In this document: in pieces, positions 6,123 to 63,572 of the stretch
Position numbering within the stretch: position 1 is the first letter of the stretch
Layout of the letters: every line of letters starts with the position of its first letter
Assembly: GCA_001724265.1 (NCBI GenBank)
Contig: MEDY01000023.1
Location: 62,001-126,000, forward strand
DNA length: 64,000 nt
Source: Rhizaria sp. SCN 62-66
Taxonomy: Eukaryota
Reading direction: 5' to 3'
Notes under the pieces: generated by a model
What the model saw: only the letters and a program-made list of their open reading frames with translations
The model's database searches: none
What the model was told of the DNA's origin: nothing
Program-made: the position numbers and the translations under genes

Positions 6123-6944
6123 ATGCCTATAGGTATGTCTGATTTATCTCAGCCGGTGTGGATTGCTGCACTTGAAAGGCGGCTGGCTTGTCTTCGGGCT
6201 CATATCACTGCTGTCATCCACAATAAGCCCCTCGAGATCTTGAAACAACCTCATATCGAGAAAGAGGTTCCGATCCGTGCTGACGCAATTCGCATCATGG
6301 ACATGGAGAGCGACAAGAAGTCCGTCGCGGCTGCACTTAAGGCGGCGACCGAGGACTGGAACGAGAGGACGCAGCAACTAAAGCAGAAGGCCAGCATCCT
6401 TCGCACGAGCGACGCCAACGACGTCCTCGACGCGATCGCTCTTGCGTTCGTCAAGGAGCGCGCTGAGAGCGGCCCCTGGTACACACATTTCCGTCTTACG
6501 TGCAACCCGGCAACCGGTGAGTATTCTCAGCAGCGCGTCCCGCCGCACGAGGTGACAATTGGCGACATCTTATGGGCCGCCAAGTGTCACGACGACGCCG
6601 CAGTGCGCGAGGCGCTCGCCCAACGCTTTCCCGCGGACGTCTGGAGCGCGCTGACGCGGCTCTAGAGCGAGTACCACACCGCCGCGCCCGCGGACGGACC
6701 CGCACGCATCCCGGTCCCACTGGACAGCCGCGGGCGCATCACGCTGAGCATCGGGCGCGCAGACGACGCGCCCCTCGTCGTCTCCGCGCTGCTGATTGCG
6801 GGCGTGCTCGCGGACGCGGATAACGTGTTCGTCATGGAGGTACGCAAGGTTTCGCTGCTTGCACAGGCTCCTGCAGCGCCCGCATTAGCCTTTGACGATG
6901 CTGTTGTCATCGCCGCTGAGGGCGATGCTGAGAAACAAGCCTAA
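6123..6944 (+). CDS. Hypothetical protein, ~273 aa if the in-frame TAG at 6663-6665 is read as sense
   Basis: ORF 6114..6665 ends in TAG, but the same frame stays open and GC-rich (SEYHTAAPADGPARIPVPLDSRGRITLSIG...EKQA) to TAA at 6942-6944, where AT-rich sequence begins. Confidence 0.55.
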
Positions 6945-7274
6945 GTTGAGCAAGCTTGTGCTGAGTGCGCATATAGGGAAACCAGAGCAGAGGATACATG
7001 GCAGTGTGGGCGGAGAGTAGCACGAACAAAAGCTGAAAAATACAATACTAATTTGAACCGTTTGCGCGATGATAAATCTGTATTCATATTGCGTGTCTCA
7101 GAATCACACTGTATTCGTTGGCCTCAATGGCCCTTGGAGCCAAGGTGACTGACTTGGATACGTATTAATACTTGCTAAAATGAGCACAATTCATATCATA
7201 TACAGAAATATATACGCATGTCGTTATATTATTTGTGCAATGCTCGTAATTGTTATACCTCGCCAATATTTCGC

Positions 7275-8612
7275 TCACACGAGGAACTTGCGCTTGACGA
7301 CGCTGTCCCCGGCCTCTGCCCACTCAGCCTTGGTGACGCAATACTGCGCCACGAACCCTTCCTGAGCCGCGAACCGTGCGCCGGCGCGCCAGCCCGCCGT
7401 GATGGGGTCTGCGGGCTGCCGCACCGACAGCGCGGCCTCGGCCGGCACGTGTGGCCGCAAATCCCGCAGTAAACGCTCGGCGGCGTTGGGAAGGTTGAAG
7501 CAGCCGCCGACCAACACGATGTTGCCCCAGAGTAGTCCGCGCAGTTCAGCAGGCGCGGCGGCCACGGCGGCGGCCACGGTCTCGGCCAGTCCGGACTGCG
7601 GGTAGCCGATGTCCTGGGGACGAAATAACAGCTCAGGCACGGAAAAGCGCTCGTTGGTCACCGCGATCGCGTGCTCCTCATCCTCGTCGTCGTCGTTGTC
7701 GTTGCTGCTCGCGGCGGTAGCGGCGGCAGCGGCGGTGGCAGGGTCCGCGATGGCCCTGGGCGGCTTAACTTTCCCGATGAAGGTCGTGCTGTTGTTGGGC
7801 AGCACGTATTCGCGGCGGATTGTGTTAAGCGCGGCACGCTTGACTCGAGCCTTGGCCAAGTCGCCCTCGAAGTCGAGCGACACGTAGCATAGCTTCTCCT
7901 TGATGTCGTTGACCAAGTACGTCTCGTCCATAACGTCCCACTGGCGGTACGTCAGCACGTCCTTAAGGTAGTTCGTGAGCACTTTCCCGCCCAGGTCCAT
8001 GCGCTTGACGGCGGACGCAATCGGGCGGCTGCGATACACTGGCACCGCGCTGCAGCCACTGAAGCCCGCGTCCACGACCAGCGCGCACGCCGGCGGCTCC
8101 ACACTCGCGTTCGCACTGGCGCTGGCGTTGGAGGCGATGGCGGCGGCGGTGGGCGGGAAGTCGAGCGCGGGCAGCGCGGCGGCATGCGCGGCGGACATGC
8201 TGCGGTGGACAGCGCCAAACCCGTGGGTCTCGAGTGCAAGCTCCATGTACTGCGCGCCCTGGGGGCATAGCGGGGACTCGAGCAGGCACAACGCCGTGTC
8301 GGCCAGCGCTGCGTCGCTGTTGAGCAGCCCGCGGGTCGCGGCCGACGTCACGGAGGCGGGGGAGCCGAACATACGGGACCAGACGAGCGTCTCCAGTTCC
8401 CAGTCGATCACCAGCCCCTTGTCCTTGGGACGGCGGTACAGCAGCGACGTGTACTCGGTCACCTGCGCGCACTGGTCTGCGACGAGCATGCGGCGGTCGT
8501 TGCGCTGGCGCACGGCGTAGTTGGGCACAACCTTGGCGGGGCCCGCGGCGGCGTCGGCCGCGAAGCCGAGCTTGCACGTCTCGGAGCCTTCGTCCAGCAC
8601 GATCACGTTCAT
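7275..8612 (-). CDS. ARP6: Actin-related protein 6 (SWR1 complex), intronless, 445 aa
   Basis: Actin-fold motifs (VIVLDEGS, LVVDAGFS, NERFSVPELLFRPQDIG) occur with ARP6-typical KRMDLGGKVLTNYLKDVLTYRQWDVMDETYLVNDIKEKLCYVS. Ends TGA. Confidence 0.9.
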   Translation of the reverse strand: MNVIVLDEGSETCKLGFAADAAAGPAKVVPNYAVRQRNDRRMLVADQCAQVTEYTSLLYRRPKDKGLVIDWELETLVWSRMFGSPASVTSAATRGLLNSDAALADTALCLLESPLCPQGAQYMELALETHGFGAVHRSMSAAHAAALPALDFPPTAAAIASNASASANASVEPPACALVVDAGFSGCSAVPVYRSRPIASAVKRMDLGGKVLTNYLKDVLTYRQWDVMDETYLVNDIKEKLCYVSLDFEGDLAKARVKRAALNTIRREYVLPNNSTTFIGKVKPPRAIADPATAAAAATAASSNDNDDDEDEEHAIAVTNERFSVPELLFRPQDIGYPQSGLAETVAAAVAAAPAELRGLLWGNIVLVGGCFNLPNAAERLLRDLRPHVPAEAALSVRQPADPITAGWRAGARFAAQEGFVAQYCVTKAEWAEAGDSVVKRKFLV

Positions 8613-12200: not shown

Positions 12201-12897
12201 TTTTAATTTCACGTATTCCATTCTTTGTTTCTCTTATTGACCACTCCAGGCTCTTGCGCTCGTGTGGGGCCTGTTCCGCCACGAGCACAAGGTCTCTGTC
12301 ATGCACGTGCAGCTTAAGCGCCACAACGAGTACGACCAGCCGATCCGCAACAAGGACCCGATGCACTTCCAGGTCGGTTTCCGCCGTTTCCTCACCGCGC
12401 CGATCTTCTCCGAGCAGTGCAAGGGCACCACGAAGCTGCTGATGCAGCGCTTTGTGCCGCAGGACGTCAACTTCGTCGCCTCGTTCTACGCGCGCGTGAT
12501 GTTCCCCTCTGCCACGGTTCTCATGTTCCCAGCGCACGTGCTCGGCAGCTACAAAGACGAATTCCCCTTCAACCCCCTGGCGGCGTCTGGCACACTGCTG
12601 ACCTGCGACCCGAACCGGCTCGTTCTCAAGCGCGCCGTGCTGACTGGCTACCCCGTCAAGGCCTCGTATAACACGGCCGTCGTCAAGCACATGTTCTCCA
12701 CGCCCAGCGACGTGCAGTGGTTCAAACCCGTCGAGCTGTGGACCAAGACGGGTTTGTACGGACGCATCACCGACTCACGCGGTCTGCACGGTCTGTTCAA
12801 GGCGTCGTTCAGCAACGTTATGAAGCACAAGAAGCCGGTGCACATGACGCTTTACAAGCGTCAGTTCCCCGTCTGGAACCCCTCCACGCTCGGCTAA
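9243..12897 (+). CDS. TSR1: Pre-rRNA processing / 40S biogenesis protein TSR1, ~1,028 aa. Exons 9243-10508, 10625-10825, 10970-11763, 11900-12077, 12250-12897
   Basis: Motifs: HHRSSLKQTSKPFK N-terminus, DVAKVADVVLF, AARP2CN-like LRVTGYLRG...NQLVHITGFGDF, ARARFALYRPLRSFRQSAWD..ESLP.EY.RI.QF, and C-terminal VLKRAVLTGYP...VVKHMF..PSDVQWFKPVELWTKTGLYGRI. Introns are phase-consistent. Ends TAA. Confidence 0.93.
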
Positions 12898-13442: not shown

Positions 13443-16400
13443 ATGGCGTCCCAGTACGCAGACTACGCGTCGCACGCGCTGCCGCCCGCCACGGCGGCTG
13501 CCCCACCCGCGTTCCCGGCCCGCGAGCGCATTCCTATGCCGCCGCCCCTGCACCAGCGCCACAGCAGCAGCGCCGCGCTCTCGGCCACAGCCGCAGCAAC
13601 GGCCAGCGCCAGCAGCGCCAGTAGCGCAAGCCCTCTGCTGTCGACCCAACGCTCCGCCTCCGCCGCTGCGGCCGGCGGCAGTGACGTCAAGCGTAGCCTT
13701 ATCCTCTCCGCGTCTGCGCAGTTCATCGCCGACCTGCGCGCGTCGCTGCAGCGCCAGTCGCAGGCGCTCCGCCTGCTCGCGCAGCAGCGTACTGACAAGC
13801 GCATGAGCATCGCCTCGACGGACCACGTGCTCTCCGCGCTTCGCCAGCAGCTCGCACAGATTATGCAGGGCCAGGCGCAGGGCCAGGGCCACAACGCGGC
13901 CGAGGTCGCGGCACGCATCGCGTCGCTCGAGGCCTCGCGCGCCGGCGAGGAGGCCGCGCTGGCCGCTTTGTCGCAGCAGCTCAACGACGCTGAGCGCGCG
14001 CACGATAAGACGCAGGCGGAGCTCTACAAGCACGCCGAGGTTGAGGCCGCGATTGCGCAGGTGAGACAGGAGGAGGCCGACGAGACTGACCGCCGTGCCG
14101 CCGCCACCATCGGCAGCCACAGCCACAGCACCTCGCGTGGCCCGCGTCCTGGCTACACGACCGCTACGAGCAGCGATAACATTAACGGTAGCGCGGAGAG
14201 CGACGCGAGCTCATTCGCGGACACCAGTCGTCTGTTTCCCCCGGGCTCGCGCTTTCAGTCGACGCTGCAGCCGGGTGCTGTGGCCAACACGCTCAAGCCC
14301 ACGTTCGCGGCCCGCGCCGCCGCGGCCGCCGCCAGTGAGGCCGCTGCCGCTGAGGCCGCTGCTGCCGCTGCATCGCGCACGGGGTCCCTGCAGGCCAGCG
14401 TGGCGGCGTCGCGGCTTGCTATCTCCGCGGCCGCCGCGGGCAGGATTGCGGCCGCCGAGGCCAAGGCCAACACACAGGTACGGCGAGCTAGCGATGATAT
14501 TATTGTGATATTTTCTCTCGGATTCGAATATTTTCTCCACTTTAACCGGGGTATTTGCAGATATTGGTCTCTATTTATTGTAATTTTAAGTCATTAAAAC
14601 AATTAATTCTTACAAAATCGATATATCTTTCACTTTGTAACTCCTTGCCTTGTTCGCTTCCGACAGGCGCTGGAGCGTGTGGAGCTCAACGCCGCCGGCA
14701 TCAACGCTGACGCAGTGCTCGCCGTGCGCGATGAAGCCGAGGCCGCAGAGCGCCGTGCCGCCGAGCGCGCGCAGCGCCTCCGCGCCAGTGCGGCCAAGAT
14801 TGCGCACGACGTCGCGGAGGAGAGTCGCCACGCGATCGCTGAGGTACGTGGTCACAGACTGATAACAAGTAGAAACTGGACACTCAAAGAGAGATTTGTT
14901 ATTGGAGCTATATTAAAGCTGGGAACAACGGGATATTTAAGTTCTGAACCTCATTATATATTCTCAATCTCCACTTTTCTTTCATCGTGTGCCATATTTG
15001 CGCTTCTGTAGGCCGAGAAGGCGCAGCAGGAGGAGGCCCGCCATCGCGCGATCCGCGGCCACCTTGGCCGCTCTGCACTCTCTAATCCGGACCTCGCCGT
15101 GGCGCCCGCGGCGACGCAGCGCGCGCTGGACGCCGCGCTGGTGCAAATGGACCGCGCGAGCGTCGAGTTGCACTCCGTGACGGGACCGGGCGCGGGCGCG
15201 CGCAGGCACGAGGCGCGCCTGGCGGCCGCGGCCGAGGCGGCGGAGGCGGCCGCCACGGCGGAGCGCCAGCGCGGGCAGACGCTGCCTTACAGCACCGCCG
15301 ATATCGCTAGTATTAAGGCTAGCGAGGCCGCAAGTAACAACAATAACAACAGTAACACCGCAAAGCAGCAGCAGCCGGATCAGCCCGAGTCAGAGCAGAA
15401 GGCCGCGAGCTACGTTGTTAATGGCCCGCCCTACTTGCCCCGCAGCGCGATGCCCCGGAGCACCGCCATCACTGCCAGCAGCAACCCCGAGAGCGACACC
15501 GCAGCGGGCGGTCTTGACAGCGACAACGACACTGACGACATCTCGGCGTCTAGTCCCAGCGATCTTTCCGCCGCCGCGCTCGCCGCCGCCGCGGCCCGCG
15601 CCCGCGCGGACGTGTCGCAGACCGAGCGGCTGGCGCACATGCTACAGGCCTCGGCCGCGGGCCGCGCCGCGCGGTCCGCCCCGGCGCAAGCGCGAGCGCT
15701 GGCGGCCGTGGCGGCGCAGCGCGAGCGCCAGGCGCGCGGCGAGAACAAACTCGTCTGTGGGCGCGCGTACGAGACGCCCGTGTTTACGTTTACGCCAGGG
15801 TCCGTCGATTTCCCCGACTTTGCGCCCGGGAAGCAGTACGCGCGCCGGATCACGGCGACCAATGTGTCTTTCGGGCCCAACTCGATCCGCCCCCTTCCTT
15901 GCCCCGAGCCAGGTACGACTCAGAAGAGATCTTTTGTCTCGACATATCTCAATAATTTTTGTTAATTGTTAGATATCGTTTGTTTATTCGGATATTAAAA
16001 GTATTTAAAAATATATTTAGACAATATTTACCCATAAATCACTCCAAAATGCTTGATTTTTGGATAATCTCCGCCACAGGACCGCTGGCGGGCTCCGTGC
16101 GCGTGTCGCACACCCCCGCACCGGCCGGCATGCCCGCGGGCACCACGGCGGCCTTCACGGTGCATTTTGCCCCGCGCCGCTTCCTCCCCGTGTCCACCGC
16201 AGTGACGCTACTGACCGAGGCGGGCCCGTTGACGCTGCCGGTGCGCGCGCGGCCTCCGCGCGCGCGCATCGCACTGTCACTGCCGCTGTCGCAGAACAGC
16301 AGCACCAGTCTCGGCGCCACAATCAGCTCCCGCGCCAACGCCAACGACAGCGAGAGCGCTGGCGCCAGCGCGAGCGCGAGTGAGTCGTCTGCTGCGGCGC

Positions 16401-19400
16401 TGGTCAGGCATCAAGTGACTGTGAGCGCGAGTCTGTCACTGGGCAGCGTCGTCGTCGGCGGAGCGCTCAAGAAGAGCTTTGTGGTGAGCAACAACGGCGC
16501 GATTCCGGTCAAGCTGCGCATGATGCTGGCGCCTCTCGAAGGAGACAGTGATGATAGCAACGACGAAATGATCAGTTTCAACAACAACTCTGATTTTGGC
16601 GGCAACACCAACATGGTCCACGGTCATGTGAACTACTCCTACAACGGCGATGAGCAGCCCTCGCAGCGCGGTGACCAGCTTCCTGTCCTGCCCCTGAGCA
16701 CGCTGAGCGCCCCGTACAGCACACAGTCGCTGGTGCTGCGCGGGTACTCTTCCACCACGGTGACCGTGAGTTTCTCCGCCGTTTCCCCCGGCGCCGTCAA
16801 GGCGGTGCTCCGCGTTGCCGCCCGCCTGCTGTGCGCCAGCGACGTTTACCACGAGCCCGCGGATACCGCGGTCGGCACGCCCGCCGCGGTGGCGTTCTCG
16901 AGCCGCAACCCGCTCACCAGCGACGTCAGCGCCAGCGGCTACGCGATGCACAGCGCGGGCAACGAGATCACGCACGACGGCGACGGCACTGCCGGCAACG
17001 ACGGCGCTAATTCAAGCGCGAGCGCGGTCGTGATTGAGCCCGGCGTGGCGCCCACGGACGCGCACTGCCAGTTCCTCACGGGTGTGTACGCGCCGGACCC
17101 GCCCTCGCGCTTCGCCAATACGCTCGCACCGGCCACTAAGGACGCTGCCAGCTTGACCACCTACGGCAGCGAAAACGATAAGAACAGGAGCGGTGGTGAC
17201 CGTGAGCGCGCGCTGCTGGCGGCCGTCGCCGCCGACCGCGACGACACGGCGCCGTGGCCCGAGCTCGCGCTGTCCGCAGCGACTCTGCAGCGCACGCATC
17301 CGACGACGCTGGCGTCTGTGTGGCGGTCGCCGCGGCGCTGGGATGTGCTCGTCACGGCCACGGCCACGGACCTCCCGCTCATCCTCGTCCCGCACCCGCC
17401 CCGCAACGCCAAGGCCAGCGCCAGTGCCGGTGACGTTTCCATCGCGATCTCCCCGCTTTCTGGCTACACAGGGCCCCTGGGCGGGACCAACACCGCCACC
17501 GCCGCGGTGGCTATGGCGGGCGTGGCGGGTGGGGACACCGTGCTGGACATGCAGGTCTGCGGCGTGGGCAAAACACACCGCGCCGCGCTCGGCGTGCGCA
17601 GTCTGGCCACAGCGACGACACGGGTCGACTTCACCGTCCCCGCCTGGGCCGCGGGCGCTGTCACGGTCACGCCCAGGACGCTCTTCGTGCAGGGCGTCGC
17701 CGCCGCCAGCGACGGCGATGCGCAGCAACAGCAGCAACAACATCAGCAGCTGTTGCAGCAGGTGACGGTGACTGTGGCTGCTACAGCGGCGTTCAGGAGG
17801 GAAGCGCGTCGCCGCAACAAGCTCGCTCTGAACATGAACGCTGGCGGCACTCTCCGTGCGACACTGGGCGGCAATGGCTTTGGCGCTACGGCGGCTGTGA
17901 ACGACACCAGCAATAAGATGACGCTCTATGGCGACACCAGTGCTAGAACTGCTACTTACGATGATGACGGCGTTGATGGCGACAGCTACTACTCCGACGA
18001 CCACAAGTTCGGCGGCGGCGGCGGCTTCGGTTCGATCCAGGGCGGATTACACTCCACCCTTGCGCCGGGACTCTACGACCCGCTGGACCTGCTATGCCTG
18101 AGCATCAAGGTGACGTCTCCGTCGCACAGCATCCCGCTGCCACTGACGCTGCTGGCGCGCCTGTGCTCGAGCCAGCTGCGCGTGTCGTCGCGCGCGCTGT
18201 CATTCGGCACGTGCTTCACGGGACAGACTGCGGCGTTGGCGCTCACGGTCACTAACCCGGCGCCGTACGTCGCGCACGTCGCCGTGTCAGGGCTCGGTAT
18301 CAGCACCACGGGCGGCGCAGCCGTGCTCGCGCTTGACGCCGGCGCCGCCGCTGTCAGCACCAACAACAACAGTAACAACAGCAATAACAATAACAGTAGC
18401 AGCGCGAGTGCGGGCGCCAACACGGCAAACACTGCGGTTGCGAATAAGACTGTCGCGCGCGCTGGTGCGAATAGTGCGCGTGCTGGCCCTAGCGCGGACT
18501 GCTTTGCCATCCCCCCGGCATCCTCTGTGACCGTCTACGTTCTCGTCACGCCTACCGCGCTGGCGCCCGTCGAAGGCACTGTTACACTCACTCCGCTGCG
18601 GGCGTCGCCTGTGGTCGTCAAGGTAAGCGGCCGCGCCGCCGCGCCGCCGCTGCTGCTGTCCGCGGCCGTGCTGCGCGTGCCGCCCACGGCCGACGGCGAC
18701 AGCTGCATCGCGACTTTCACCGTCACCAACACCAGCAACACGCATAAGTACGTCGAAGCGAGAGCAGTTAACGCTATGAAGCGCCGATCATATTCAATTG
18801 TATAGTTTTATGTGAAATTTTCCGAATGCATCGTGGTGATCGGTATTGAGATGTACGTTTCTGCTTTACTATGGAGTTCTATCACTGACATATCTCCACT
18901 CTTGTTTCTTGTTACTGCTGCATCACAGGACCTTCTCGCTCTCAGCCCCGGCCCCCGCGACGACGGTCAGCGGCCAGACCGACAGCGACGGACTCGGCAA
19001 CGGCGGTTTCACTCTGCCCCGTGCCCTTGGGCGGCTTATCTTTGACGCTGGCGACGAGAACATCACCGCTGACGCGGCTGACTCGGCGGGTAGCACTTCC
19101 GAGGGCGGCTCAGCTTTGAGCGGGGGCGGCCTGACCTCCTCCGCGCTGAGCAGGTACTTAGACCCGCCTTTAGCGCCCGGCTCGCTTGCCGAGCTCTCCG
19201 GCGGCGCAGGTACGGCCAACATCCCCCTCAACACGCTCGCCAACACCCCCGCGATTGTAAGTGCCATCTGCTCGGGGTACTTAGAGTTCAGCCCCAGTCT
19301 TAAAACGCTCGCGCCAGGTGAATGCACCGAAGTCCAGGTCACGTTTGCGCCGCAGATGTTTGCGCGCCTCGCCTCCGCGCTCGCCCGCAGCAACAGCCCC

Positions 19401-22400
19401 GGCAGCAGCAACGCCAAGAGCAACGCGAGCCTCGGCGCCGACGCTGGCACTGGCGCTGGGACTGACTCGACTGCTGCCGCGTCTTCGCTGTCGTCGGCGG
19501 CGGGCGCGGCGTCGCTGGTCTCGTTCTCCGGTCCGCTGGCCGAGGCCGCGTCGCTCGATGCGCTCTTGTTTCCCGCCCATAGCCAGCAGTCCAACAGCAC
19601 CAACGGCAGCAGCAACAACAACAACGGCAGTAACAGAGCGAGCTCAAGCGCAGGCCAGTTCGCCTTCGACGGCAACTACGGCGGCTTCAACGACGACGAT
19701 GAGGGCGCCGACTTCGACTCCTTCGGCATGCACGCCTCTCTCGCCGCCGCCAACAGCAGCAGCGGAGGCGGCGTGCGCAGCGAGATCCCCGGTTTGGCTC
19801 CGGTCCCGCCTAGCGCCAGCGCAGGGTTTGCCGCGCTCTGGCGCCGCCACGGCCGCCACCGCGTCGCTATCCACGTCCAGTCGCAGCCGCAGTCAGCGGG
19901 CGTCGCTGCTATTAACCGTAGCAGCGGCGGTGACTCTATCGCGACGATGTTCCTGACTGTGGAGACGACTGCGACGCTGCCGGCGCTGCGCGCGTCGGTG
20001 TCCACACTGCGCTTCGGCTGCGTCGCCTCGAGCGCCAGCGCCGCGCTCACAGTGCGCCTCGCGAACCTGACTTCGGAGCCGCTCGAGGCCGCCGCGCTGC
20101 CGCTGCCGCCGCGCTGCGCCTTCAGGCTCTCGGCGCCTTCGGTCATCGTCCCGCCGCTGGGCACCGCCGTCGCCACCGTCGTCTTCACGCCCGCCGCTGC
20201 CGCCAAGGCAGGGTCCAAGGGCGGCGCCGGTGACAACAGCGCGACGTCCGTCACCGAGGTGCTCACTCCAGGCAGCAACAACAACAACAGCAGCAGTAGC
20301 AGCGGGGAGACGGCTGCGGCGGAGCAGCGCCAGGAGCTCGTCTGGCTGGCGCGCCCCGCGGGCCTGCCGACCGCGGCCGCGCAGGCGCGCGCGCTGGCGG
20401 AGCGGCCCGTGGCGCGCGTGCGCGTGACGGTGACGGGGCAGGCCGTGACGCCAGTCGTCGCGCTCGCGCTGCCGCCCGCGCCGCACCTTTCGCTCATGTT
20501 AAGTCAAAACAACAACAACAGCAGCAGCAGCAATGCTGCCGTGGGTGCTAACGTTTCTCCCGCTGCTGCCGCCAGTGTCAGCGCTGCTAGCCGTGTGACC
20601 ACCGCTACGGCGAGTGATGCCAGTCGCAACAACAACAACAGCAACAGCAGCAGCGTCAACGGCGGCAGCAGCGGCTTGAGCCCGAGCACGAACACCGGCA
20701 CCGAGGGCTGGTCTGCGGTGAGCACGACTGGCGGCGCGCGGCCAGTGCTGTTTGCCTTCATGGGCGACGTTCTCGCGGGCGACTCAGCGACGCGCGCGCT
20801 GGTGATCCGCAATGAGTCCGCGCTCGCCACGCTCAGCTTTGCGCTCAACGCGCCCGTGTCGCTGGCGTCTCTGGTCCGAAGCGGCAGCAACGACAAGACG
20901 AAGGGCAGGGCGAGTGCCAAGGGAAGCAAAAATGCCAAGAGCGCGCCCGCAAAGGCTGGTGACGCGAGTGCGAGCGCACAGCAGATGGCTGTGAGCAGCG
21001 CGAGTTCTGGTTATAGCCACGCGAGCGCCTTCACCATGGAGCCGTCTTCGCTGAAGCTGCCGCCGAAGCGCTCCGCCGTGGTGCTGCTGCGCTACTCGCC
21101 GCAGACGCCGTCGGCGTTAAGTCAGGCCGCGTACGACCTGGGCGGGGCGGTGCTCGTGATGCACGGCCGCGCCCACGCGAGGCAGATGTTCGTTCTCAGC
21201 AGCAACGGCGACGGCGACAGCGCGGCCGCGAGTGCGACGACTGTGCCTCAGCTTATCAACGGCAGCACCAGTGCGTCCAGCGATGGCAAGAGAGCCATTT
21301 GCGCGACCGCTGCGCAGCCGGCGTGTCTGTTCGACCCTTGGGCCCACCCCAACCGGAGCAGTGTTGCTACCGCCGCCTCCAGCAGCAGCAGCAGCGGCTC
21401 TGGCAGCAACGCTGCGCCGGTCGCGGGCGGTGCGGCCACGGTTGTCCGCAGCAGCACGCACGCCGCGCTGGCGCTGGCCATCTCGCGCGCCTCCGTTCTC
21501 CGCGCCTCCAAGGGCGCCATGGAGGCGCGGTCGCAGGCTCACTCACAGGCACAGGCGCAGTCTCATGCACTCTGCAGCACCAGCGCCCCCGGCGGTGCGG
21601 TGGAGACCGGGCTGCCCGGCGTGCGCTACGTGCCCGCAGGCGCGTTCCTGGACGGTGCTGAGCCCGACGCCGGCGCGTTGCTGCCGCTCGTGCTCTCGAC
21701 CGCGGGCACGCCCGCCGCTGGCGCTGCCACTGGCGCTGGCGCTGCTAGCGCGGGCGCGGGCGCGGGCGCAGGCGCTTTGGGTGGCGACTTGCAGGCGCTG
21801 CAGGCGCAGCCGTGGTCGCCGGTGCCTGGGCTGGCGCAGTCCGCCACGCTGCTGGCCGCCGGCGCGCTCACGCTGTCTATGAACCCCCCACAGCCTTCCT
21901 CCAGCAGCGCTGAGCAAGTGGCCGTGGGCGCGCCGCAGCAGCAGTCGCAGGCGACTGTGGACAGCGTGCTTGACGCGGCCGCCGCGCAGACGCTTCAGGG
22001 CGCGGCCATCACGGCCGGTCTCGCTCCCCTGCACGACTGCAATAGCGCCAGCTTCAACGCGAGCAGCAGCGGCAGCATCGCGGCGAACGCCCCTGCCAAC
22101 GCTAGCGCTGCCGCGGGTGCTCCTGCGAGCGCCTCCGCTGCTGGCAATGGCGCGGCGGGCAACGACGCGCTGGCGCTGCTGCTGCAGCAGGGCTCCTTTG
22201 GCGGCAAGAGCGCTGCACTGGCGAGCTTCGCCAAGAGTCTCTTCTCGCAGCCCGCGACGGCCTCGCTCTTGCCTGCCGCTCACTGTGGCGTAAGCAGCAC
22301 CGTGAGCACTGCTTCGGCCGGCGCTGGCGGCGCGGGCGCCAAGAAGCCGGCGACTGCGGCTGTTAGCAACATCAGCAGCAGCGGCAGCGGCAGTAGCGCT

Positions 22401-24401
22401 GGTAGCAACAGCGGCCGCGGTCGCCCTGCTTTTGCGACAACCGGCAATGCCAACAGTGTTAACAACGCCAACGCCGCGGCTGCTTCTGGGAGCAACGCGA
22501 GCGCTGCTGCCGGTGCCGCCGCTGCTACGCCTGTGCCCGCGAGTGTGCTCCCGCTGACGCTGAGCGAAGGCGAGCACTCGGTCTCGCTGGCGACCGCGCT
22601 CGTCGCCGCGGGCCTCACCACGGCCGACCGCGTCGCCGCCGCCACCACGGGCCCCGTCGTCGCGCAGCTCGGCGCCGGCGCCGCCGCGGGCACCGGCGCC
22701 GGCGCTGGCGTGGCCGGCAGCGGCAACCTGCTGTTGCTCTCCGCCCCCGTTCAGGCCGCCGCCGCTCCGGCTGCGGCGACGTCGCGCAGCAGCAGCACAA
22801 ACCGCAGGTCCGGAGTCATCAGTAGCAGCGGGGGCGCCAGCAGCGGCGCCGGCTCCAGCTCTGCAGCCGCTGTGGGCGCCACGCACGCCCACGGACACAG
22901 CGCGACGCAACAGCAGCAGCAGCTCCAGCAGCAGCAACAGCAACAGCAGCAGCAGCTGGAGGCCGCGGCGGCGCAGGCCGAGAACGCTCGCCGCAGCCTG
23001 GGCGCGCGCGTGCTGCTGCGTCAGATCGCCGTCGGCTGCGCCGCCGTGGTGCCCGCGCAGCCCGACGCCGCCCTCGTTGCCGGCGCCTACCAGGCCCTCA
23101 CGGACCCCGAGCAGAGCGCCGCGCAGCAGCAGGCCGCCGCCGCAGCCGCCGCCGCAGCCGCCGCGGCCGCTGCGCCGGTGACCGGGGCGGGCACGGCTGC
23201 GGGCCGTCGCGCTGCAGCCGCGGCCGCTGCCGCAGCCGCTGCTGCGGGCAACGCGCCAGTGGGCGCTTCCGCTGCCGCTGCTGCAGGCAAGGGCGGCGCG
23301 GGAGCGAGCACTGGCTCTGCTGCCGGCGCCAGTAGCAGTGGCAGCGCAAACGCCGCTGCTGCGGGCGGCGCGGCGGCCGCTGCGGGCACGGCTGCGGCTG
23401 CCTCTGCTGCCGCAGCGGCCGCGGGCGCAGGATTCACAGGTTCCTTCGCGTTCACCACCGCCGAGGGGCTGCCGCTCGCGGACACGCTGGCGGCGCTGCC
23501 GCAGCAACTCGCCGTCACCCGCGCCAGCGCCGCCAGCGTGGCCGCCGGCGCTCTCCCAGCTGGCGCTGGCTCTGGCCTTGGCGGCATGGGCTCCGGCAGC
23601 AGCGGCGGCGGCGCAGTCCTGCCCGGCAGCGGCAGCAACTCCTCTCGTCCCCCGCGCGGTGGCGCCGGCTCTAGCAGTAGCGGTGACGCGTCCGACGGCA
23701 GCGCCGGCGCCGGGACTCTCGGCGGCGCCGGCTCCGAAGGCCTGCTGTGCGACCCCGCGCTGCTGTCTCCGCTTGACCCGCTGCGGTACGTCACCGTGGA
23801 GCCGGCTTGTGGCGCGCTCAGGCGCGGGCAGAGCGCCGTGGTGTCGATCTGGTTCAACGTCGCGGCCTACGCGCGCGCGCTCAAGGTCACCACGTTCGCC
23901 ACCTTCGCCCCCGCGGCGGCGACCAGCGCGGCCTCGCAGGCGGCGAACGGCGCCGGCGCAGGCGCGAACGGGCAGGACGACGAACAGAGCGCAGGCGCGG
24001 GCGCGGGCCACGGACCTCACTCCTCCGCAAGCGCCGCCGCTCGCGACGGACTGGCCAGCGGCTCTGCTTCTGCGTCTGGCGCTGGCGCTGGCTTGAACGC
24101 GGCGTCTTCCTCATCTGAGGCAGAGGCGGAGGCGGAGGCCGCGCTGCGGGTGGTGCCCCGCGGCGCATCGGACCTCATCCCGCGCTGGGTCAGCGTCCCG
24201 CTCCTGCTCACGCTCCGCGGCGGCGCCACCTCGCTCCCTCTCGGCGCGCAGCACCAGGGCGCAACCGCCGCTGGGGTTGCCGGCGCGGTGGCGTTGGCAG
24301 GAGCCGGGGGCGCGACGGTGGCTGTGCCGGGGGCGCCGGCGCAGACGGTGCAGGTCGTGCTGCGCGCGTTCGTCGATCCGAGCGCCGCGACGGCGGAGTA
24401 A
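13443..24401 (+). CDS. CFAP74: Cilia/flagella-associated protein 74-like (N-terminal coiled coil plus ASH/PapD-like Ig repeats), ~3,417 aa. Exons 13443-14477, 14667-14843, 15012-15912, 16080-18747, 18929-24401
   Basis: The segment FTFTPGSVDFPDFAPGKQYARRITATNVSF and repeated 'L.FG...G....L.V.N' Ig-like modules resemble CFAP74. Four introns join the track ORFs in consistent phase. Ends TAA. Confidence 0.72.
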
Positions 24402-24789: not shown

Positions 24790-26937
24790 ATGTCAGTTGT
24801 ATTCGACTTGCTGAGCGGCTTGGCCCCGAACCGAGATGCCGCTTCTGTCACCGCTGCCAGCCCTGTCTACAACCCAGCTTCAACTCAGCTTTTCTTTTCT
24901 AACAATGCCAACAAACAAGACAGAATGGAAGGCGACGCAGTATGCGGCCTAGGCGCGACGACAGGGCACGAGCAAGGCGGAAGTGGAGATTTGTTGCAGG
25001 CTGATGACGACTCACTGCTCACGTTTCCCGGCCTCCCAGAGTATCACAGCGCCGACCTATCGATGGACGCGCTTGACGACGTGCTGTTTGCGTTTGACCA
25101 CGCCACCACGGAAGCGCACCGCGCCTTTCTTGCTGCACAGACAGAGCACGGGCGCCTGTTTGCGTTCGGTCGGCTTGAGAGGGTGATGCGCAAAGCGCTT
25201 GCGTCGCAGCACAAGCCTCTCATCTCACGACTCATGTACGCACTTCAACAAATCAATTCCTTTGAGTATTACAACATAATTTTGTTCGAGAATGCAAACG
25301 TGTTAAGATCTCCGAATATCTTCTCGCGTTAATCACGAATCGCGCATTGTAGATTAAGTATCATCGTCCGTACAGCTCTCACATCTTTCATTCACCCTGA
25401 CAGCAAGACCACGCCTTCCACATCCGGCGACGCGCCCTGCGCTGCCTTCATTGCCGCCGCGCTAGACCGCGAAGCATCGCAGCTGGAAGACACACTCACA
25501 TACCTCGCGCGCGCTCTGCGGCCCCCTCTGCTTATGCCCAGCAGTGATACATGCAGCAGCAACAACATCAGAACCAACGCCGCCTGTGCACCGTCGGCCC
25601 ACAACGCCCACGTCAGCGCCTCACCCGCCAGTAACACGCTGTTAGCCAGCGACTCGCCCGCGCACAGTTTGCAGCTGCTGGCGTCTGCGCCGCTCCACGC
25701 GCTCCTCGCGTCGGCCGTCTCCCGCCTCCGGGCCCACCACGCCCTGCTGCGCGGCGAGCTCGCCAACAGGGCCTGGGGCGCGGACGCCGTAGCCGCAGCA
25801 CTGGCTGAGATGGCCCGCGCGTGGGGGTAGCAGTCGGACGTGCCGGGGACGGCCACCACGGTCGTGGGCCGGCTCGGCAGCGCAGTGGGCGCGCTCTGGA
25901 GCCGCGGCAAGAGCAAAGCAGTGGCGGCTGCGGCGGCCGCGGCAGCGGCGGTGCTCAGTCCGAGAAGCAAGGCAGACAGCAGCAGCAGCGTAAGCGCAAG
26001 TGCCAGCAACAGTATCGACTGTGCTGCTGCAACTGGCGGTGCTGTTAGCGCTAATAACGAAGCTGGTGTTGGGGACGTTTTGACTGCGAGTGAGCTTGCG
26101 AGTCCCTTTGCTGCCACTCGCGGCCGCTCTGCTAATGCTCGGAATACGCTAGCTAGTGGTATCAACGACGTGACTGAGCTGTCGCGGGCAATTGCCAGCG
26201 GAAACAGTCCGATTAGTGTTGCTAAAGCAAGTCCCAATGCAGGCACAAGCGCAGACGCTGGCAACTCGAAGGGCACCGCATCTAAAACACGCACCGACGA
26301 CTCGGTTCAGAACGAGGAACGCTATAATAGCGCTAATGGACTTGTTGGTGGCCCCGTCCGCGGTGGCACTGAGATCGGGAGCGGCAGCGACAGTGACAAC
26401 GACAACGAGAATGCGTCTCTGGCCAGCACAAGCAACAAGAGCTGGAGCAAGCTCAACAGCACAACTGCGGCTGGCATGAGTGGCTGCGCTGTTACAGGGA
26501 CCGGTAGCAACGCACTACTGCAGATGTAGGTGTATCAACCAGAGAATTCTCAGTCGCAGTCAAAGCCGCGGCCGCCGGATAACCAAGATACATTGTGCGC
26601 GAACTACGATGGCGTGCTCAGCACTAACAGTGGCGGAGATGACGTGGCATGTAACAGTATCGATAGCAGCCTTCTGCTCGCATCACGCAGGCTCCAGACT
26701 ACTTTCGTTCACAGTAGCAACAGAAAGACAAACATCGGCAGTGCCTTGACTGCGGGCATTACGAGCGGCCTCAGCGGCAATCTAAGTGGTACTTTTAGTG
26801 ATAGTTTGAGTGGCCAGTGTGACATCACAGGACATCCGTTGAGCTCTGAGCTTATGTTGCTGCGCCGCCCGACAGCCAACAACACCGTCACCACGAACGT
26901 ACGTGACACAATGACAGGCCCTCAAGCTAAGAAGTGA
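24790..26937 (+). CDS. Hypothetical protein, ~659 aa. Exons 24790-25235 and 25404-26937, with two in-frame TAG codons (25828-25830, 26527-26529)
   Basis: A phase-2 intron (GTACGC...GACAG, 168 nt) joins the exons. Three track ORFs (25534, 25840, 26530) lie in one frame and are separated only by TAG. Ends TGA. Confidence 0.6.
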
Positions 26938-47726: not shown

Positions 47727-47760
47727 TGCAATCTATACCACAGTGCAATCTATACCACAG
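47727..47760. repeat. 17-bp perfect tandem duplication (TGCAATCTATACCACAG x2)
   Basis: Read directly from the sequence. Confidence 0.85.
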
Positions 47761-48978: not shown

Positions 48979-49043
48979 TAGTAACCCAGGCGCAGCGCAG
49001 TGACAGGGAGCCGCTCTGGCGCAGCAGCCGGGGGTTCCGCATC

Positions 49044-49098
49044 CACACACACACACACACACACGCACACACACACAAACACGCACGCACATACACAC
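49044..49098. repeat. Imperfect (CA)n microsatellite
   Basis: The sequence reads cacacacacacacacacacacgcacacacacacaaacacgcacgcacatacacac. Confidence 0.9.
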
Positions 49099-51533: not shown

Positions 51534-51568
<35 letters not shown>

Positions 51569-54500
51569 CACTGGCGCTGGCGCTGGCGCGGCTGCTGCTG
51601 GGAGGTTCGGAGGACTGCCGCCACCGTCGCCGTTCCGCGGTTACAGCGGGCCCCCCGTTCCCCATCCAGCGATGGGCACCAACACCATGAGTACCGCGAG
51701 TAACGCGAATACCCTCTACGACGCCCCGAGGACGCCGGAGCGCAACGGCAACCGCGGCGGCGTCGGCGCAAGTGCCAGTAAGGCGCTGCTGCTGAGCGCC
51801 AACAGCAGCCGCACGCACAGCCACTTCGGAACACATGGGACCTCTGGCGGGGGGGCTGGAACCGGTGGCGCTCACGTTCACGGCTTGCTATCGTTCCCCG
51901 CGTCGCCCGCACTCGCATGCATCACCCCCATCCGCGGCCGCAGCCACGGCAGCCACGGCGGCCATGGGAATGGCGCGTTTACGATGGCGACGCCAACGGC
52001 GCTGCCGTTGCCTGTGCCGTTGGGGCCCAATAACAACGCGGGCGTTGCAAACACGGCTGCGTTCCCGGCGTCGCCGTTCGCGCTGCGCCAGAACAGCAAC
52101 GTCAACACGAACACTTAGCAACAACAGCAACAGCAGCAGCAGTTGGCTGCGAGTGGTGATGCCGCAGAAAACGATTTGTGGTGGGAACAGGCGGTTTATG
52201 ACCCCCACTGGCGCACCAACACTGGCCCTTGTCCTTTTGACGCGGCCCCGTTGTCCCAACCTCTTACCGCGGACTCTAACGGCGCGGCTGAGTCTAAGTA
52301 CCCCGTGGGGACGCCTAAGTACCCGTTGTCGAGCGGCCAGCTGTCCCCGCGCAGCGCCGAGGCCGCTAGCGACTTATTCTTTGCAACGCGGCCCGCGACG
52401 CCGCCCGACGCACAGTACCCTGGCAAGTGCACCGTCGTCGATGCGGAAAAAGGACGGCTGGATGTTGTGCTGTATGACCCTGTAACGGATACGTTTCCGG
52501 AGTACGAGAAAGCGCTTGCAGCGCATAATAAAGCTGCTGCGGAGGCTGCCGCTGCTGCTGAGGCTGCTGCAGAGGCCGAGGCTGAGGCCGCTGCGAGGGC
52601 CGATCCTGTGGCGGCAGCAGTGGCTGCGGCGAGCGACAGGAACGCTGTGGGCGGGAATCCAGTGATAATCGTTACGCCGTCCTCCGCGAACAGCACAAAC
52701 ACTGTCGGCGTTGCTGTAGCATCCACCGGCCTCAGCAAGGGTTTTGGGGGAGACGACGACGACGGCGACAGTTACGAGTTCAACTTCGACTCTGATTCTG
52801 AAGCCACCACTGCGTTTGCAGCTAAGGGGGGTGCTGCTTACACCAACGCTGGCGTAATTGCGCCGCCGCCGCCGGTGCTCGATCTGTCCGTGATTCCCCC
52901 GCCCTCTGCACCGAGAGCCGCACCAGCCCTAACAGCAACCGCAACAGCACCGGTCGTCGTCAAAGCAGCGGCAGCTGGTGCAGTAGTGCAGCCGAGTGAG
53001 CTCACATCCGCTGCATCGGACTCATCCGCCCCGGTCGCCAGCGCGAACCCCGACTATCTCACCGTAACCACCACTGCCACTGTGGCGACTGGACTGCCGG
53101 CGACTGGTCAGTCGCCGTCGCCGCCGCTGTCGCTAACTCTGATCCCCAGCCACAGCGGCGACGGCGGCAGCGCCAACGCCGCCGCCGCCGCCCCCAGAGC
53201 GAGCCAGCGCAACAGCGCCGGCAGCACCAGCAGCGGCGGCGGCAGCGGCGGCGGTAGCGGCGGCGGCGGGAAGAACCGGCGCGGCGCGAGCGGGCTCGAT
53301 CTCAGTGCGCTGCGGCTCGCGTGGGACGCCGACGCCGCGCCCGCTGCGCCCGCCGCCGCAGGGCCCGCTAGCACTGTTGCTGTTTCCGCCCACCCCAATC
53401 CTGCGGTCGCCGCGACGACCGAGCAGGCGATCTTTGCTCCCGCACGCGGTTCTGCGGCGACTGCGACTGCTGCCGGTGCTGTTGCAGGTGGGAACGACGA
53501 CAGTACGCTTGACTTGGGGCTCACGACCATAAGCCCTACCGCTGTAACTGTGCCTGCGACCGCAACTGCGACCGCGAGTGCTGCAGCGGTTCTTGATGAT
53601 GGCGGCTTAACTTTCGGCGACGCGACCTTCGGCCTCACTCTCGGTCACCACACCGTCACCGTCAACCAGAACGCTGCGCACGCTGCTAACCCCTCTCACA
53701 GCAGCTCTATCACTGGTGTGCACACCGCGTTTGGCGCCAGCAGCAGCGGAGGCTTTGGCGCGAGTTACGACGCACTGCCGCAGGAGACGTCGCAGAAGCT
53801 TGGCCCGCTGAAGCGGCTGCCCGCGCAACGCACGCGCCGCGCGAACACCAATCTCGGTGCGCTCTCCAGCTCGAACGCGAACTTGAGCGGCACTGCCGCG
53901 AGTCTCAGCACGACGATGAACGGCAGCGGCGCTGAGGGCGACAGCGGCTCGTTCTCGCTTTCGCTGACGAGGTCGCTGCTTGCGCCCATCGGCGGCGGGG
54001 GCGGCGGCGCGGCTGCAAATGTAAACGTGGTTACGAACCACGGTGATGTTGCGGCAAATGGCGGCGCTGTGCCGAAGCGGGTGTTGGGACCGATTAACAC
54101 GACGCGCGGCTTGCCTTTGAGCCTTATTCCGAGTCAGAGCAATAACAGCCAGACCAATCATGGCACTCTAAATATGTCCGAGCTCTCGTTCGACGACGTA
54201 ACGCACGTCCCAGCCGCCGGTGCCGGCGTCGCCGCTGCAGCCGGCGTTCCAGAGGCACCTCACGACGCTGACGAAACGTCGCTGCCGATGTCGCCGCCTC
54301 TGGAGCCCAGCAGCACTCCGTTGCCCGACCCGACCCACGCTCACCACGGCAGCCACCATAACGCTCACAACGCGCACGCGGGCGAGCAGTCGCTGTCCCA
54401 GTCGCTTTCGCAGTCGCTCGCTATGACGCTGTCCGCCGCGAGCGCCGCCGCGCGCGGGGGCCGGCTTGCCCCTATCTCCGCCGCTGCCAACTCGAGCAGC

Positions 54501-60500: not shown

Positions 60501-63500
60501 CAGTCTCTGGCGGCTGCGCTGGCGCCCGCAACCAGCGCCGCAGCTGCGGCTGCAGTGGGCCACACGCACACGAACACCAGTCTGAGCAACGGTAACAACA
60601 CTCTTCCACCTCTGCCGCCGCCTGTGCTTGGCGCTCGCGACGGCAACCGCAGTTCGACTGCGGCGAACACCAGCGCGTCGGTCCGAACTCTCCGTGAGTA
60701 CAGTACCGACGACGGCAGCGATGACGGCGTTGTCGCCGACGCGCACGGCGCCACGGATGGGGTAAGTCGCACGTTGTTCGCCAACAACGACAACGACACG
60801 TTTGCCAACACAACTACACGCGGAAACGCCGTGCAGCCGCCGCATCAGCATCAGCAGCAGCTGGTGGACCAATCATTTTCTCGTCGCAGCGCCCCGCCTC
60901 GTGCAAACTCGAGATTCTTGAGCAACGACTTATCTCTGCTGAGCAAACTCGAGACGACCCATGCGCCACCCAGAGCGTCCGCGACTGCTACTGCCGCGGC
61001 CGCCGCTGCAGCAGCTGCTGCAGCCGTTGCTGGCGGCTCTGGTGGTGGGCTAACGCCGGCTGCAGTTGAGGCTGTGGCTGCAGCAGTCGCCGCCGTTCTT
61101 GCCAATTCAAACGCTAAACACGGCGTAAACGCTAACTCCGTGCAGCTGCAGCAGCAAGAGGAGTCACAACAGGGAGATGACATGTCGTTCTTTGCTGCTC
61201 CGAGCCCTGTCCTTGCTGCTGGTGTTTCCCAGCAGCACCAGCAGTTGATGCAGCAGCAACACCAACAGCAGTTACAGCTGCAGCAGATGCAGCAGCAACA
61301 GCTCCAGATGCAGATGCAACTACAGCAACAGCAGCAACAGCAACACTTTGCCCCAGCGCCACTGCAGCCACAGTTGCAGACCGAGGCGGAGGCGTTCGCT
61401 CTCGCGCACGCACTCGGCTACGGTGCGCACATAGCCCACCCACTGCATATGTCTGCGCCCGCGCCCGCGTCACAGGGCTTCCTGGAGCCGCAGTTCGGCG
61501 GCGCCGCGTACGCCGCAGTCGACGCAAGCTACGCGATGCCGCTGTCGCACGATGCGCAACTCACGCTCGTCGAGCAGTCGCAACTGCACTCGCAGTCTGC
61601 GGTTATGATGCCAGAGCAGATGCATGCAGTCCACGGCCACCATGGGAGTGACGCTGCGGCGACCGAGACTGAAGCAGAGGCCGAGGCGGAGGCAGCCGCC
61701 GTCGCCGCCGCAGAGGCCGCTTATGCCTTTGTGATGGCCCGTCGTACCGCGGCCGGGACGAACTCAGCTGTGTCAGTGCAGCACCGCGGCCAGCCCCTGC
61801 CGCCTGCTGCCGCGCCCACGGTCACTCTGACCGCCGGTGCCTCTGACGTCAAGACGACCCGCGGCGGCTTTGCCCACGACCACTCCCGCGCTGCCGACAC
61901 GACGTCCGCGTCGCTCGCGCCATTGCTGCCGCTGGAGACGTCGATGCTGCCTCACATCATCATCGACCCGCACAGCGCCAACACGCACCGCAAGCCCTCC
62001 GCAGGCGCGAGTGCGACTGCGGCTCGGCGGCTGCACGAGAGCGCGAGCGGCCCTGCGAGCGGCGCTGCGAGCCCCACCTCCGGCTCCGGTCGCAGTAACA
62101 GTAGCAGCCCGCCGAGCGCTCGCGATCACCGGGGCGGCGGTGACCGTGACCGGCAGCGCCGCGCAAGCGACCATGAACAGGAGAGTGCTGATGCAGAGCC
62201 TGCGTGGGCGCAGTCGCTGCGGGCCGCGCCGGCGCCGCTGCGCACTGCGAAGCTTATGCGCGCGCGCGACGTCGCCCTTGCAGACGCAGACGCAGACGCC
62301 GCTGCAGTGTCCGCCGCGATCCCTGCCGGCCCAGTATATGCACTACCAAGCACTGCCTCTGCTCCCGCTTCCGCTGTTGCTGCAGCAGTCGTGCCAGCTG
62401 TGCGTGCGCGGACGCGCGCGCCTGCGTTGGCTTCCGTTGTCGACGACGCCGCGTTCGCCGCGCCCGTGTCGGCCGCCGCGCGCACCGCCGCGCTGGCGCG
62501 CTCGGCCGCAACCAAAGTCGCCGCAGCGGCTTCCGCAGCCAACAGGCATGCACACAGTCGCGGTCACGATCACGTCCACGGCGATGCGCAGACGCCGGCA
62601 CCGCATGCCAATTCGTTTGCGTCCCCACCGCGTAACGCTCGTGGCCCCGCGTATGCAAGCCCGGTGAGCGGCCCTCATGTTCACAGTCACCACGTAACGA
62701 CTCCTCCGGGCTCCAACGCTGCTGCTGTTGGCAGCGCGCCGGAGTCTGCTTCGGCGGCGCTGGCTGCACTGCGGCCTATGTATGCCTCGCCTCTGCAGCC
62801 CTTCATGCGCCAGCAAGCGCTGTACGCCTATGCTGACCGTTCAGCAGCAGCGGCAGCAGCAGCGGCAGCGCAGGTTCAGTCCCAGATTGGTACTGTTGGC
62901 GCGGGTTCGATGTCGCCCATGCCACAGCCTGTGTTCGCGACGCCTGCGCCGGAGTTGGGGCCCGGTCGGGGCCGCGCGCGCGCCGCTGCCGCAGCTGCCG
63001 CTGCCGCGGCCGCAGGCGCTGGCGCTTCAGTCGGTCTAAGCGTCAACTCTGTCTCTGTCACAGCAACGCCGCGTCTTGTAACAGGAACTAACGCCAGACA
63101 CCCTCACCCTGCCTCTCGAGGCGCGTATGCTGGGCTGAGCGCGTATGCCGCTCCGGCGACGCCGTATGCAGTGGCATCGGGCGCGTACACAATGCCGCAA
63201 ACTCCGTACACAGCGCCGTACGTACCGCTTTCCGTGGCGGCGGCAACGCCGTACGGAGTTGCGCCGAGTGCTTACGCAATGCCTGCGACGCCCTACATGC
63301 AGCGGCCTGTTGCTTACGCGTCTGGTTATGGTGCTGGCTACCCTGCGCACCACGCCACAATGCAGCCATCAATGTATTCAGTCCAGCAACAAAGATTGCA
63401 GCCAGGTCTTAACCCGACAAACAGTCACTTTGCGCGCTCTCCGACCTACTCCGGGGCGAGACCCGCTTACTCCGGTGGGCTGTCTACTCCGGGTGCTGAA

Positions 63501-63572
63501 GCGAAGGCGTTGCAGTCGCTTCAGTACCAGTTGCAAGCAGCGAGGCACGGGCTTGGCACGCATCAGTACTGA
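50556..63572 (+). CDS. Giant intronless low-complexity / disordered protein, ~4,338 aa with in-frame TAG at 52116-52118
   Basis: ORFs 50556..52118 and 52143..63572 are in the same frame. The gap reads TAG CAA CAA CAG CAA CAG CAG CAG CAG TTG, with no intron or intergenic character. The downstream ORF begins at TTG rather than ATG. Ends TGA. Confidence 0.8.

Follow-up and report, generated by a model that had tools for sequence, protein, structure and literature searches.

In-frame TAG codons

Does UAG act as a sense codon in this organism, with UAA and UGA as the only stops? The 64-kb stretch of DNA analysed here (hereafter the window) belongs to a metagenome contig of eukaryotic origin, with GC-rich coding regions (GC3 about 0.8-0.9) and AT-rich introns and spacers. 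A first-pass annotation had claimed in-frame TAGs at seven positions, and all seven were present, with flanking residues as quoted there. They comprise five firm and two weak sites:

6663..6665, plus strand: TAG at residue 181 of gene G5 (6123-6944, TAA end); frame score 0.24 upstream and 0.34 downstream
25828..25830, plus strand: TAG in the low-complexity gene G9 (about 25441-26937, TGA end)
26527..26529, plus strand: second in-frame TAG of G9; downstream score +0.13
36814..36816, minus strand: TAG joining 792 and 771 codons of G13 (34241/34498-39192)
52116..52118, plus strand: TAG adjoining a Gln8 run on the 5' side of that run, in the giant gene G17 (about 50553-63572, TGA end)
33233..33235, minus strand: TAG in G12 (32777-33514); weaker case
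32801..32803, minus strand: TAG seven codons ahead of the G12 TAA; either sense or a true terminator

In 21 coding blocks (15,517 codons), picked as frames without TAA or TGA, six in-frame TAGs were found. Five coincide with sites of the first-pass annotation, and the sixth, at 15009, is a 3' splice site, its intron having been clipped by the block boundary. UAG is rare, at about 0.3-0.45 per 1000 codons (7 in 15,751 residues), and the clearly conserved genes (ARP6, Tsr1, CFAP74-like, kinase; approximately 5,000 codons in all) contain no in-frame TAG. Paralogues of the TAG contexts were sought within the window and none was found.

We assign a probability of about 0.75 to the reading that UAG is a sense codon, on an evidence base of 64 kb and not of a whole genome. 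The proposal of a translated UAG beside UAA and UGA as stops agrees with the contrast in coding potential, the lack of intron signals at the sites, homology across 6663, recurrence of the same TAG in independent DNA and in one RNA contig, the lack of TAG at gene ends, and TGA and TAA ends verified with Pfam. The organism, an uncultured, GC-rich, intron-bearing flagellate, would then decode UAG as an amino acid and terminate only at UAA and UGA.

Genuine gene ends

Each of the 12 gene ends listed in the first-pass annotation carries the TAA or TGA given for it, on the strand given. These ends, and the genes that help to define them, are as follows:

6944, 12897, 24401, 34241, 46998 and 49484: listed TAA ends
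7275, 26937, 27433, 32490, 39645 and 63572: listed TGA ends
7275..7277, minus strand: TGA terminator of ARP6 (gene 7275-8612), end confirmed by homology
12895..12897, plus strand: TAA terminator of Tsr1 (gene 9078-12897, with introns), end confirmed by homology
13443..24401, plus strand: CFAP74/hydin-like ciliary gene with GT-AG introns, exons lacking in-frame TAG and a TAA end
41360..46998, plus strand: protein kinase gene with a TAA end, whose introns define the splice signals

The Pfam Actin profile spans residues 5-448 of the 450 in ARP6 (profile positions 3-409 of 410), and GC falls to 0.37 after the end. In Tsr1, the Pfam RIBIOP_C match extends to the last profile position (291 of 291), which falls at residue 210 of the 218, and the score after the end is -0.47. 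About 16 gene ends could be resolved in the window, 8 with TAA, 8 with TGA and none with TAG (32801 being ambiguous). In this small sample the result is only moderately significant, the probability of 0/16 being ~0.03 at a TAG share of 20% and ~0.003 at 30% (hand arithmetic).

These ends also bear on the idea that UAG has a dual use, in which a suppressor or near-cognate tRNA would allow readthrough within genes and UAG would still terminate in some mRNA 3'-end contexts, as in the ambiguous codes of Condylostoma and Blastocrithidia. TAG 32801 lies exactly at the end of the G12 coding signal, with TAA seven codons later, and the sequence downstream of it (GC 0.43, score -0.11) resembles a gene end and is indistinguishable from that after a terminator; this TAG may be a true terminator. 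The very low usage of UAG is also what would be expected if the codon were still partly costly. However, none of the resolvable ends requires TAG as terminator, and G12 also contains the internal TAG 33233, which lies in the only stop-free frame on either side (93 codons before it and 143 open codons after it), with coding scores of ~0 in every frame. One ambiguous site is insufficient to establish a dual role, which we consider unlikely.

Coding potential downstream of TAG

Returning to UAG as a probable sense codon, we compared the 50 codons downstream of 14 TAA/TGA terminators with those downstream of the seven TAGs. The terminators were followed by sequence with mean GC 0.38, in-frame GC3 0.36 and coding score -0.49, as against 0.63, 0.70 and +0.16 after the TAGs (Mann-Whitney p = 9e-4, 4e-4 and 3e-4, respectively). 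All 14 tested TAA/TGA ends led into non-coding sequence, whereas coding persisted in frame after six of the seven TAGs, with no stop in 50 codons. At 6663, 25828, 26527, 36814 and 52116 the TAG frame ranked first of six on both sides, and no stop of any kind occurred in the 50 codons past the TAG. The codon-usage training set excluded G5 and G9 and included G13 and G17, and the coding scores of the latter two genes are slightly circular for that reason.

The individual firm sites behaved similarly, with differences in strength. The 50 codons after TAG 25828 had GC 0.75, GC3 0.84, a score of +0.47 and no stops, and the next stop of any kind lies 232 codons on. TAG 26527, where GC is 0.53 and the signal is weaker than at the other sites, lies in the sole frame that stays stop-free up to the TGA at 26935. 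Across TAG 36814, GC3 held steady at 0.74-0.88, with downstream GC 0.80 and GC3 0.88, and G17 runs in one frame for 556 codons before TAG 52116 and 3817 after it. Two coding stretches are never joined in a sense frame across a TAA or TGA. The stop-free blocks are consistent with the lack of frameshifts noted in the first-pass annotation.

Homology and recurrence of the TAGs

Homologue P0032 aligned to residues 102-244 of G5, spanning the TAG and leaving no room for an intron. When the 92 residues after the TAG were used alone, they still matched the colinear C-terminal part of P0032 (E=4e-5), and this C-terminal block recurs in the products encoded by L002 and L003. An AlphaFold model of G5 (mean pLDDT 55.7) places the TAG within a predicted helix (171-185) and a predicted strand-helix-strand unit past it (204-239, with block pLDDT reaching about 72); this model is too weak to be usable as evidence. 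No relative of G13 around TAG 36814 was found among proteins of 860-2737 aa, a PDB sequence search with G12 gave no match, and a metagenome scan with a poor query, starting in intron-derived residues, returned no relative.

The TAGs themselves recur in other assemblies. The DNA contig X3, from another study, shows 0 differences from window positions 34030-41381, including TAG 36814, and X6, from a third study, shows 0 differences from 51923-52158, including TAG 52116. Both TAGs being unchanged in independent studies speaks against assembly error. Locus L001 is 100% identical to 5064-7661, including TAG 6663. The assemblies in which the same TAGs recur are labelled 2015 to 2025 and come from several studies, and no strain variation at TAG codons was seen among the matches listed.

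These observations can be set against an ordinary stop function of UAG, in which the TAGs would be recent nonsense mutations, mark pseudogenes or separate neighbouring genes that share a frame by chance. Such an origin would fit the location of most TAGs in fast-evolving low-complexity proteins without detectable relatives, as well as the public gene calls P0030 and P0051, which end G5 at its TAG. However, the firm sites lack the AT-rich spacer that follows every true gene end, and the frames past two of the TAGs stay open for 3817 and 771 codons. The premature stops are all TAG, never TAA or TGA, and are accompanied by no reported frameshifts, homology extends beyond TAG 6663, the same TAGs recur in assemblies labelled 2015 to 2025, and real gene ends lack TAG. 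An ordinary stop is on these grounds decidedly improbable.

Introns and RNA

The gene models contain introns, none of which explains the TAG sites. Introns are canonical GT-AG; the nine inspected begin with GTACG (eight) or GTATG (one), and the six measured were about 106-197 nt long with GC 0.25-0.41. The long GC-rich contig, the AT-rich introns of about 110-200 nt and the GTACG splice sites are features that we take not to be ciliate-like.

Removal of the TAGs from mRNA as part of unconventional in-frame introns of high GC content, or their alteration by U-to-C editing, would draw on two properties of this genome, namely that TAG commonly serves as a 3' splice-site ending (for example at 15009 and 44809) and that GT directly follows the TAG at 26527 and 33233. 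Nevertheless, the GTA[CT]G 5' splice motif was found within 300 nt upstream of 0/7 TAG sites, and no AT-rich patch surrounds 6663, 25828, 36814 or 52116 (50-nt GC bins 0.48-0.86), whereas known introns have only 25-41% GC. The polyA-RNA contig X5 (36655-36913) crosses TAG 36814 with 0 differences and no joint, and the homology across 6663 leaves no space for an intron. Removal or editing is thus very unlikely indeed. The RNA evidence consists of a single Logan contig, 259 nt long, assembled from one polyA metatranscriptome, with DNA carry-over possible. It is also without a positive control for splicing, because no spliced joint over the known kinase introns occurred among the matches listed, RNA depth there being about 0.4-1. 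Among the RNA pieces listed, TAG 36814 is the only site covered, and it is unspliced and unedited in this single contig, which may derive from DNA.

Programmed readthrough of the TMV type, which uses the motif UAG-CAR-YYA (UAG, then CAR, then YYA), was rejected, as 0/7 sites fit the full motif, the codons after the seven TAGs being AGC, CAG-TCG, GTG, CTG, CAA-CAA, GTG and GCA.

Candidate amino acid for UAG

The first-pass annotation had called UAG probably Gln, which goes further than the contexts compared here. The poly-Gln context at TAG 52116 favours Gln with a likelihood ratio of about 10 or higher (Gln 3.4% vs Leu 0.17%; Ser 0.06%). The only homology-informative column, at TAG 6663, contains no Gln: P0032, P0033 and P0035 have His there, and L003 has Tyr (TAC). 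Gap placement at this column is ambiguous, as the MAFFT run A3 sets a gap there. The closest homologue carries TAC at the position of the window's TAG. Judged from these contexts, Gln is most likely, as the leading candidate for UAG and not as an established assignment.

UAG might instead encode Tyr, in an independent early-stage capture of the codon in a deep free-living flagellate lineage, to which we attach little probability. Such a reading would draw on the 39% identity of the best ARP6 relative, on a UAG frequency of under 0.5 per 1000 codons and on the His/Tyr column. A UAG-only change to Tyr is not among the cases named in the available parts of PMC5304391 and PMC11687900.

With Gln as the candidate, the most likely decoder of UAG would be a tRNA-Gln with anticodon CUA, and eRF1 would have lost recognition of UAG and kept that of UAA and UGA. 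According to PMC11687900, a CUA anticodon does not read UAA, which would allow UAG and UAA to diverge. No tRNA genes were found in the 64-kb window, and an Rfam scan of it gave no match.

Relation to known code variants

The window's organism would add one more case to the known UAG-only code variants, and the list of such cases in the first-pass annotation agrees with PMC5304391 and PMC11687900. In the fornicate Iotanema spirale, nuclear UAG encodes Gln, with UAA and UGA as stops (PMC5304391, PMC11687900). Like Iotanema, the window's organism is a non-ciliate flagellate that would reassign UAG only and keep UAA as a stop, with Gln as leading candidate; it differs in its GC-rich coding DNA and in that Gln is a candidate only. 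In the uncultured rhizarian exLh and three TARA phyllopharyngean ciliate MAGs, UAG encodes Leu, and the TARA MAGs carried tRNA-Leu(CUA) genes (PMC5304391, PMC11687900). There too a UAG-only change was inferred from environmental sequence with UAA still a stop, but Leu is without support in the window, given its low share in the poly-Gln context (0.17% vs 3.4% for Gln) and a His/Tyr column that disfavours it.

The code proposed for the window is the same as that of the ciliates Hartmannula sinica, Trochilia petrani and Protocruzia tuzeti, in which only UAG is reassigned, to Gln (PMC11687900). Amoeboaphelidium protococcarum, known from algal ponds, reads both UAG and UAA as Gln (PMC5304391, PMC6299283). 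It resembles the window's organism as a non-ciliate, flagellum-bearing lineage with a stop-to-Gln type of change (Gln being the candidate in the window), and differs in that UAA is a stop in the window, where about 8 genes, the homology-verified Tsr1 among them, end in TAA. In the green alga Scotinosphaera, UAG encodes Ser and UAA is a stop (PMC11687900); this is likewise a UAG-only reassignment outside ciliates, although Ser is unsupported in the window (0.06% in the poly-Gln context, and the His/Tyr column).

It is rare for a nuclear code to give UAG and UAA different meanings. PMC11687900 names a rhizarian, Iotanema, Scotinosphaera and a few ciliates, and the importance of such codes lies in demonstrating that UAG and UAA are separable. 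If true, the present case would be a further independent data point on stop-codon capture, in a GC-rich non-ciliate wastewater flagellate in which UAG is used very sparingly. A search of PMC and bioRxiv turned up no report of UAG reassignment in a wastewater eukaryote. Public gene calls already truncate proteins of this organism at TAG (P0030 and P0051), and without a check of the genetic code, eukaryotic bins from metagenomes of this kind will be wrongly annotated.

The organism recurs in wastewater and bioreactor metagenomes from several studies and years. The best match to its ARP6 had 39% identity, the named matches were spread among a haptophyte, fungi, Capsaspora and a red alga, and in the ARP6 tree the window sequence grouped only with P0001.

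Source organism and gene content

Metagenomes of bioreactors, wastewater, activated sludge and fuel cells, produced by several studies, contain the same sequence, so the window is a metagenome contig from an uncultured organism. Its Pfam gene content shows that it is eukaryotic:

7278-8627, minus strand: ARP6
9078-12897: Tsr1, split over exons
~13443-24401: CFAP74/hydin-like ciliary protein
in the window: PAPA-1 protein
in the window: CAP-Gly protein
in the window: protein kinase, intron-split

The best relative of ARP6 had 39% identity, and in the ARP6 tree the window sequence grouped only with P0001. The GC3 of coding DNA is approximately 0.8-0.9, and spacers and introns go down to about 25-45% GC; because coding and non-coding DNA differ so sharply here, the finding can be tested inside 64 kb. 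All nine introns read directly were GT-AG, starting with GTACG in eight cases and GTATG in one, and the six that were measured were about 106-197 nt long with 25-41% GC, versus 60-75% for exons. The 5' splice sites (10509, 11764, 12078, 14478, 15913, 18748, 42187, ~42546 and 44645) are unusually uniform.

Coding signal around in-frame TAGs

The first-pass annotation proposed that UAG is a sense codon, probably Gln, and that UAA and UGA are stops. All seven TAGs on which it relied were confirmed in the claimed frames, in these genes:

6123-6944, plus strand: G5, TAG 6663
~25441-26937, plus strand: G9, TAGs 25828 and 26527
32777-33514, minus strand: G12, TAGs 33233 and 32801
34241/34498-39192, minus strand: G13, TAG 36814
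~50553-63572, plus strand: G17, TAG 52116

The 21 coding blocks (15,517 codons) contained five in-frame TAGs, all from this set; a sixth in the block count, at 15009, is the 3' end of an intron cut into by a block boundary.

Properties of the 50 codons downstream of terminators and in-frame TAGs (Mann-Whitney)
Measure; after 14 TAA/TGA; after 7 TAGs; p
GC; 0.38; 0.63; 9e-4
In-frame GC3; 0.36; 0.70; 4e-4
Coding score; -0.49; +0.16; 3e-4

No stop occurred in the 50 codons after six of the seven TAGs. At 6663, 25828, 26527, 36814 and 52116 the TAG frame scored highest among the six frames on both sides, with a training set that included G13 and G17 and left out G5 and G9. TAG 36814 links 792 and 771 codons and TAG 52116 links 556 and 3817, and no TAA or TGA in the window joined coding stretches in the sense frame.

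Gene ends

Each of the 12 ends listed has TAA or TGA, as reported, and among the approximately 16 resolvable ends we counted 8 TAA, 8 TGA and no TAG, an outcome with a probability of about 0.03 to 0.003 by arithmetic if the TAG share were 20-30%. That UAA and UGA are stops is borne out by the TGA of ARP6 and the TAA of Tsr1, which match the Pfam profile ends, and by the coding score of -0.49 beyond TAA/TGA. TAG 32801 is an exception to the pattern, as it lies seven codons ahead of the G12 TAA and the coding signal stops there; it could be either a true terminator or a sense codon close to the C-terminus.

Introns and assembly errors

The TAG sites are probably neither introns nor errors. GTA[CT]G was absent within 300 nt upstream at all seven sites, and none of the four firm sites (6663, 25828, 36814, 52116) had an AT-rich patch. 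Comparison with Logan contigs, not reads, gave 0 differences over 34030-41381, spanning TAG 36814 (X3, DNA, another study), and over 51923-52158, spanning TAG 52116 (X6, a third study); locus L001 is identical to 5064-7661. The polyA-RNA contig X5 showed 0 differences and 0 joints over 36655-36913, although this is one RNA contig at one TAG site (36814) for which DNA carry-over is possible, and among the matches listed no joint that spliced out a known intron was seen.

Homology across TAG 6663

Of the genes carrying a TAG, G5 alone had relatives that could be detected. In a full HMMER search, P0030 was the organism's own G5 product, ending at the TAG, and P0032 aligned to residues 102-244, across the TAG (residue 181). 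The 92 residues after the TAG, taken alone, matched the colinear C-terminal part of P0032 (E=4e-5), and this C-terminal block is also present in the coding sequence of two further loci, L002 and L003. These matches indicate that in-frame translation goes on beyond TAG 6663.

When 5.8 billion proteins were searched with a profile (lengths of 79-478 aa; scoring of the 8,000 candidates that shared most words), only four family members emerged, all metagenomic. One is named in its source as a bacterial FadR regulator, apparently by mis-annotation. In both L002 and L003 the reading frame has to change partway through the gene. The public gene calls P0030 and P0051 stop at the TAG of G5, giving products of 176 and 180 aa; the contig that carries one of them is 134,583 bases long, which shows that this region has also been assembled at greater length.

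The probable genetic code and the candidate amino acid at UAG

Given the coding signal on both sides, the lack of intron signals, the homology past 6663 and the absence of TAG ends, we estimate a probability of roughly three in four that UAG is a sense codon in this organism, and the core of the first-pass proposal is upheld at that strength. It would then be a further case of a known, rare class of code variant. Passages of PMC5304391 and PMC11687900 describe UAG-only reassignment in Iotanema (Gln), a rhizarian (Leu), Scotinosphaera (Ser), and Protocruzia and phyllopharyngean ciliates (Gln or Leu). In Amoeboaphelidium both UAG and UAA are Gln, according to passages in PMC5304391 and PMC6299283, whereas TAA terminates genes in the window, so that code does not fit. 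Our literature searches, which took in PMC and bioRxiv, turned up no report of such a UAG-reassigned organism from wastewater.

As to the residue, two weak clues conflict. TAG 52116 is directly followed by Gln8; in the window, five Gln come next after 3.4% of Gln (21/615), at most 0.34% of other residues and 0/209 Tyr, a likelihood ratio of roughly at least 10 for Gln. The column at TAG 6663, directly after a conserved motif, holds His in three G5 homologues (P0032, P0033, P0035) and Tyr (TAC) in L003, and in one MAFFT run this position is a gap. The proposed Gln is favoured by the poly-Gln context, and the one alignable column shows His/Tyr. With precedents also considered, Gln is somewhat preferred and Tyr is unlikely, the other residues sharing the remainder.

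Other features

The whole of G17 (50553-63572, plus strand), about 4,300 codons, is one ORF without a Pfam domain; runs of Ala, Ser, Asn, Gln and Asp make up most of it, and the window has several such very long, low-complexity genes. A small two-exon gene ending in TGA (39645-40345, minus strand) encodes a protein, perhaps a small membrane protein, whose hydrophobic segments are rich in Gly and Ala. The non-coding stretch 47574-48100 contained neither an ORF nor an Rfam match (E<=1). Its depth was 10-40x that of its neighbours in all four runs, and contigs covering it showed many differing positions and skipped 96 bases (47653 to 47750); possibly it is an RNA or repeat, either multi-copy or widely conserved.
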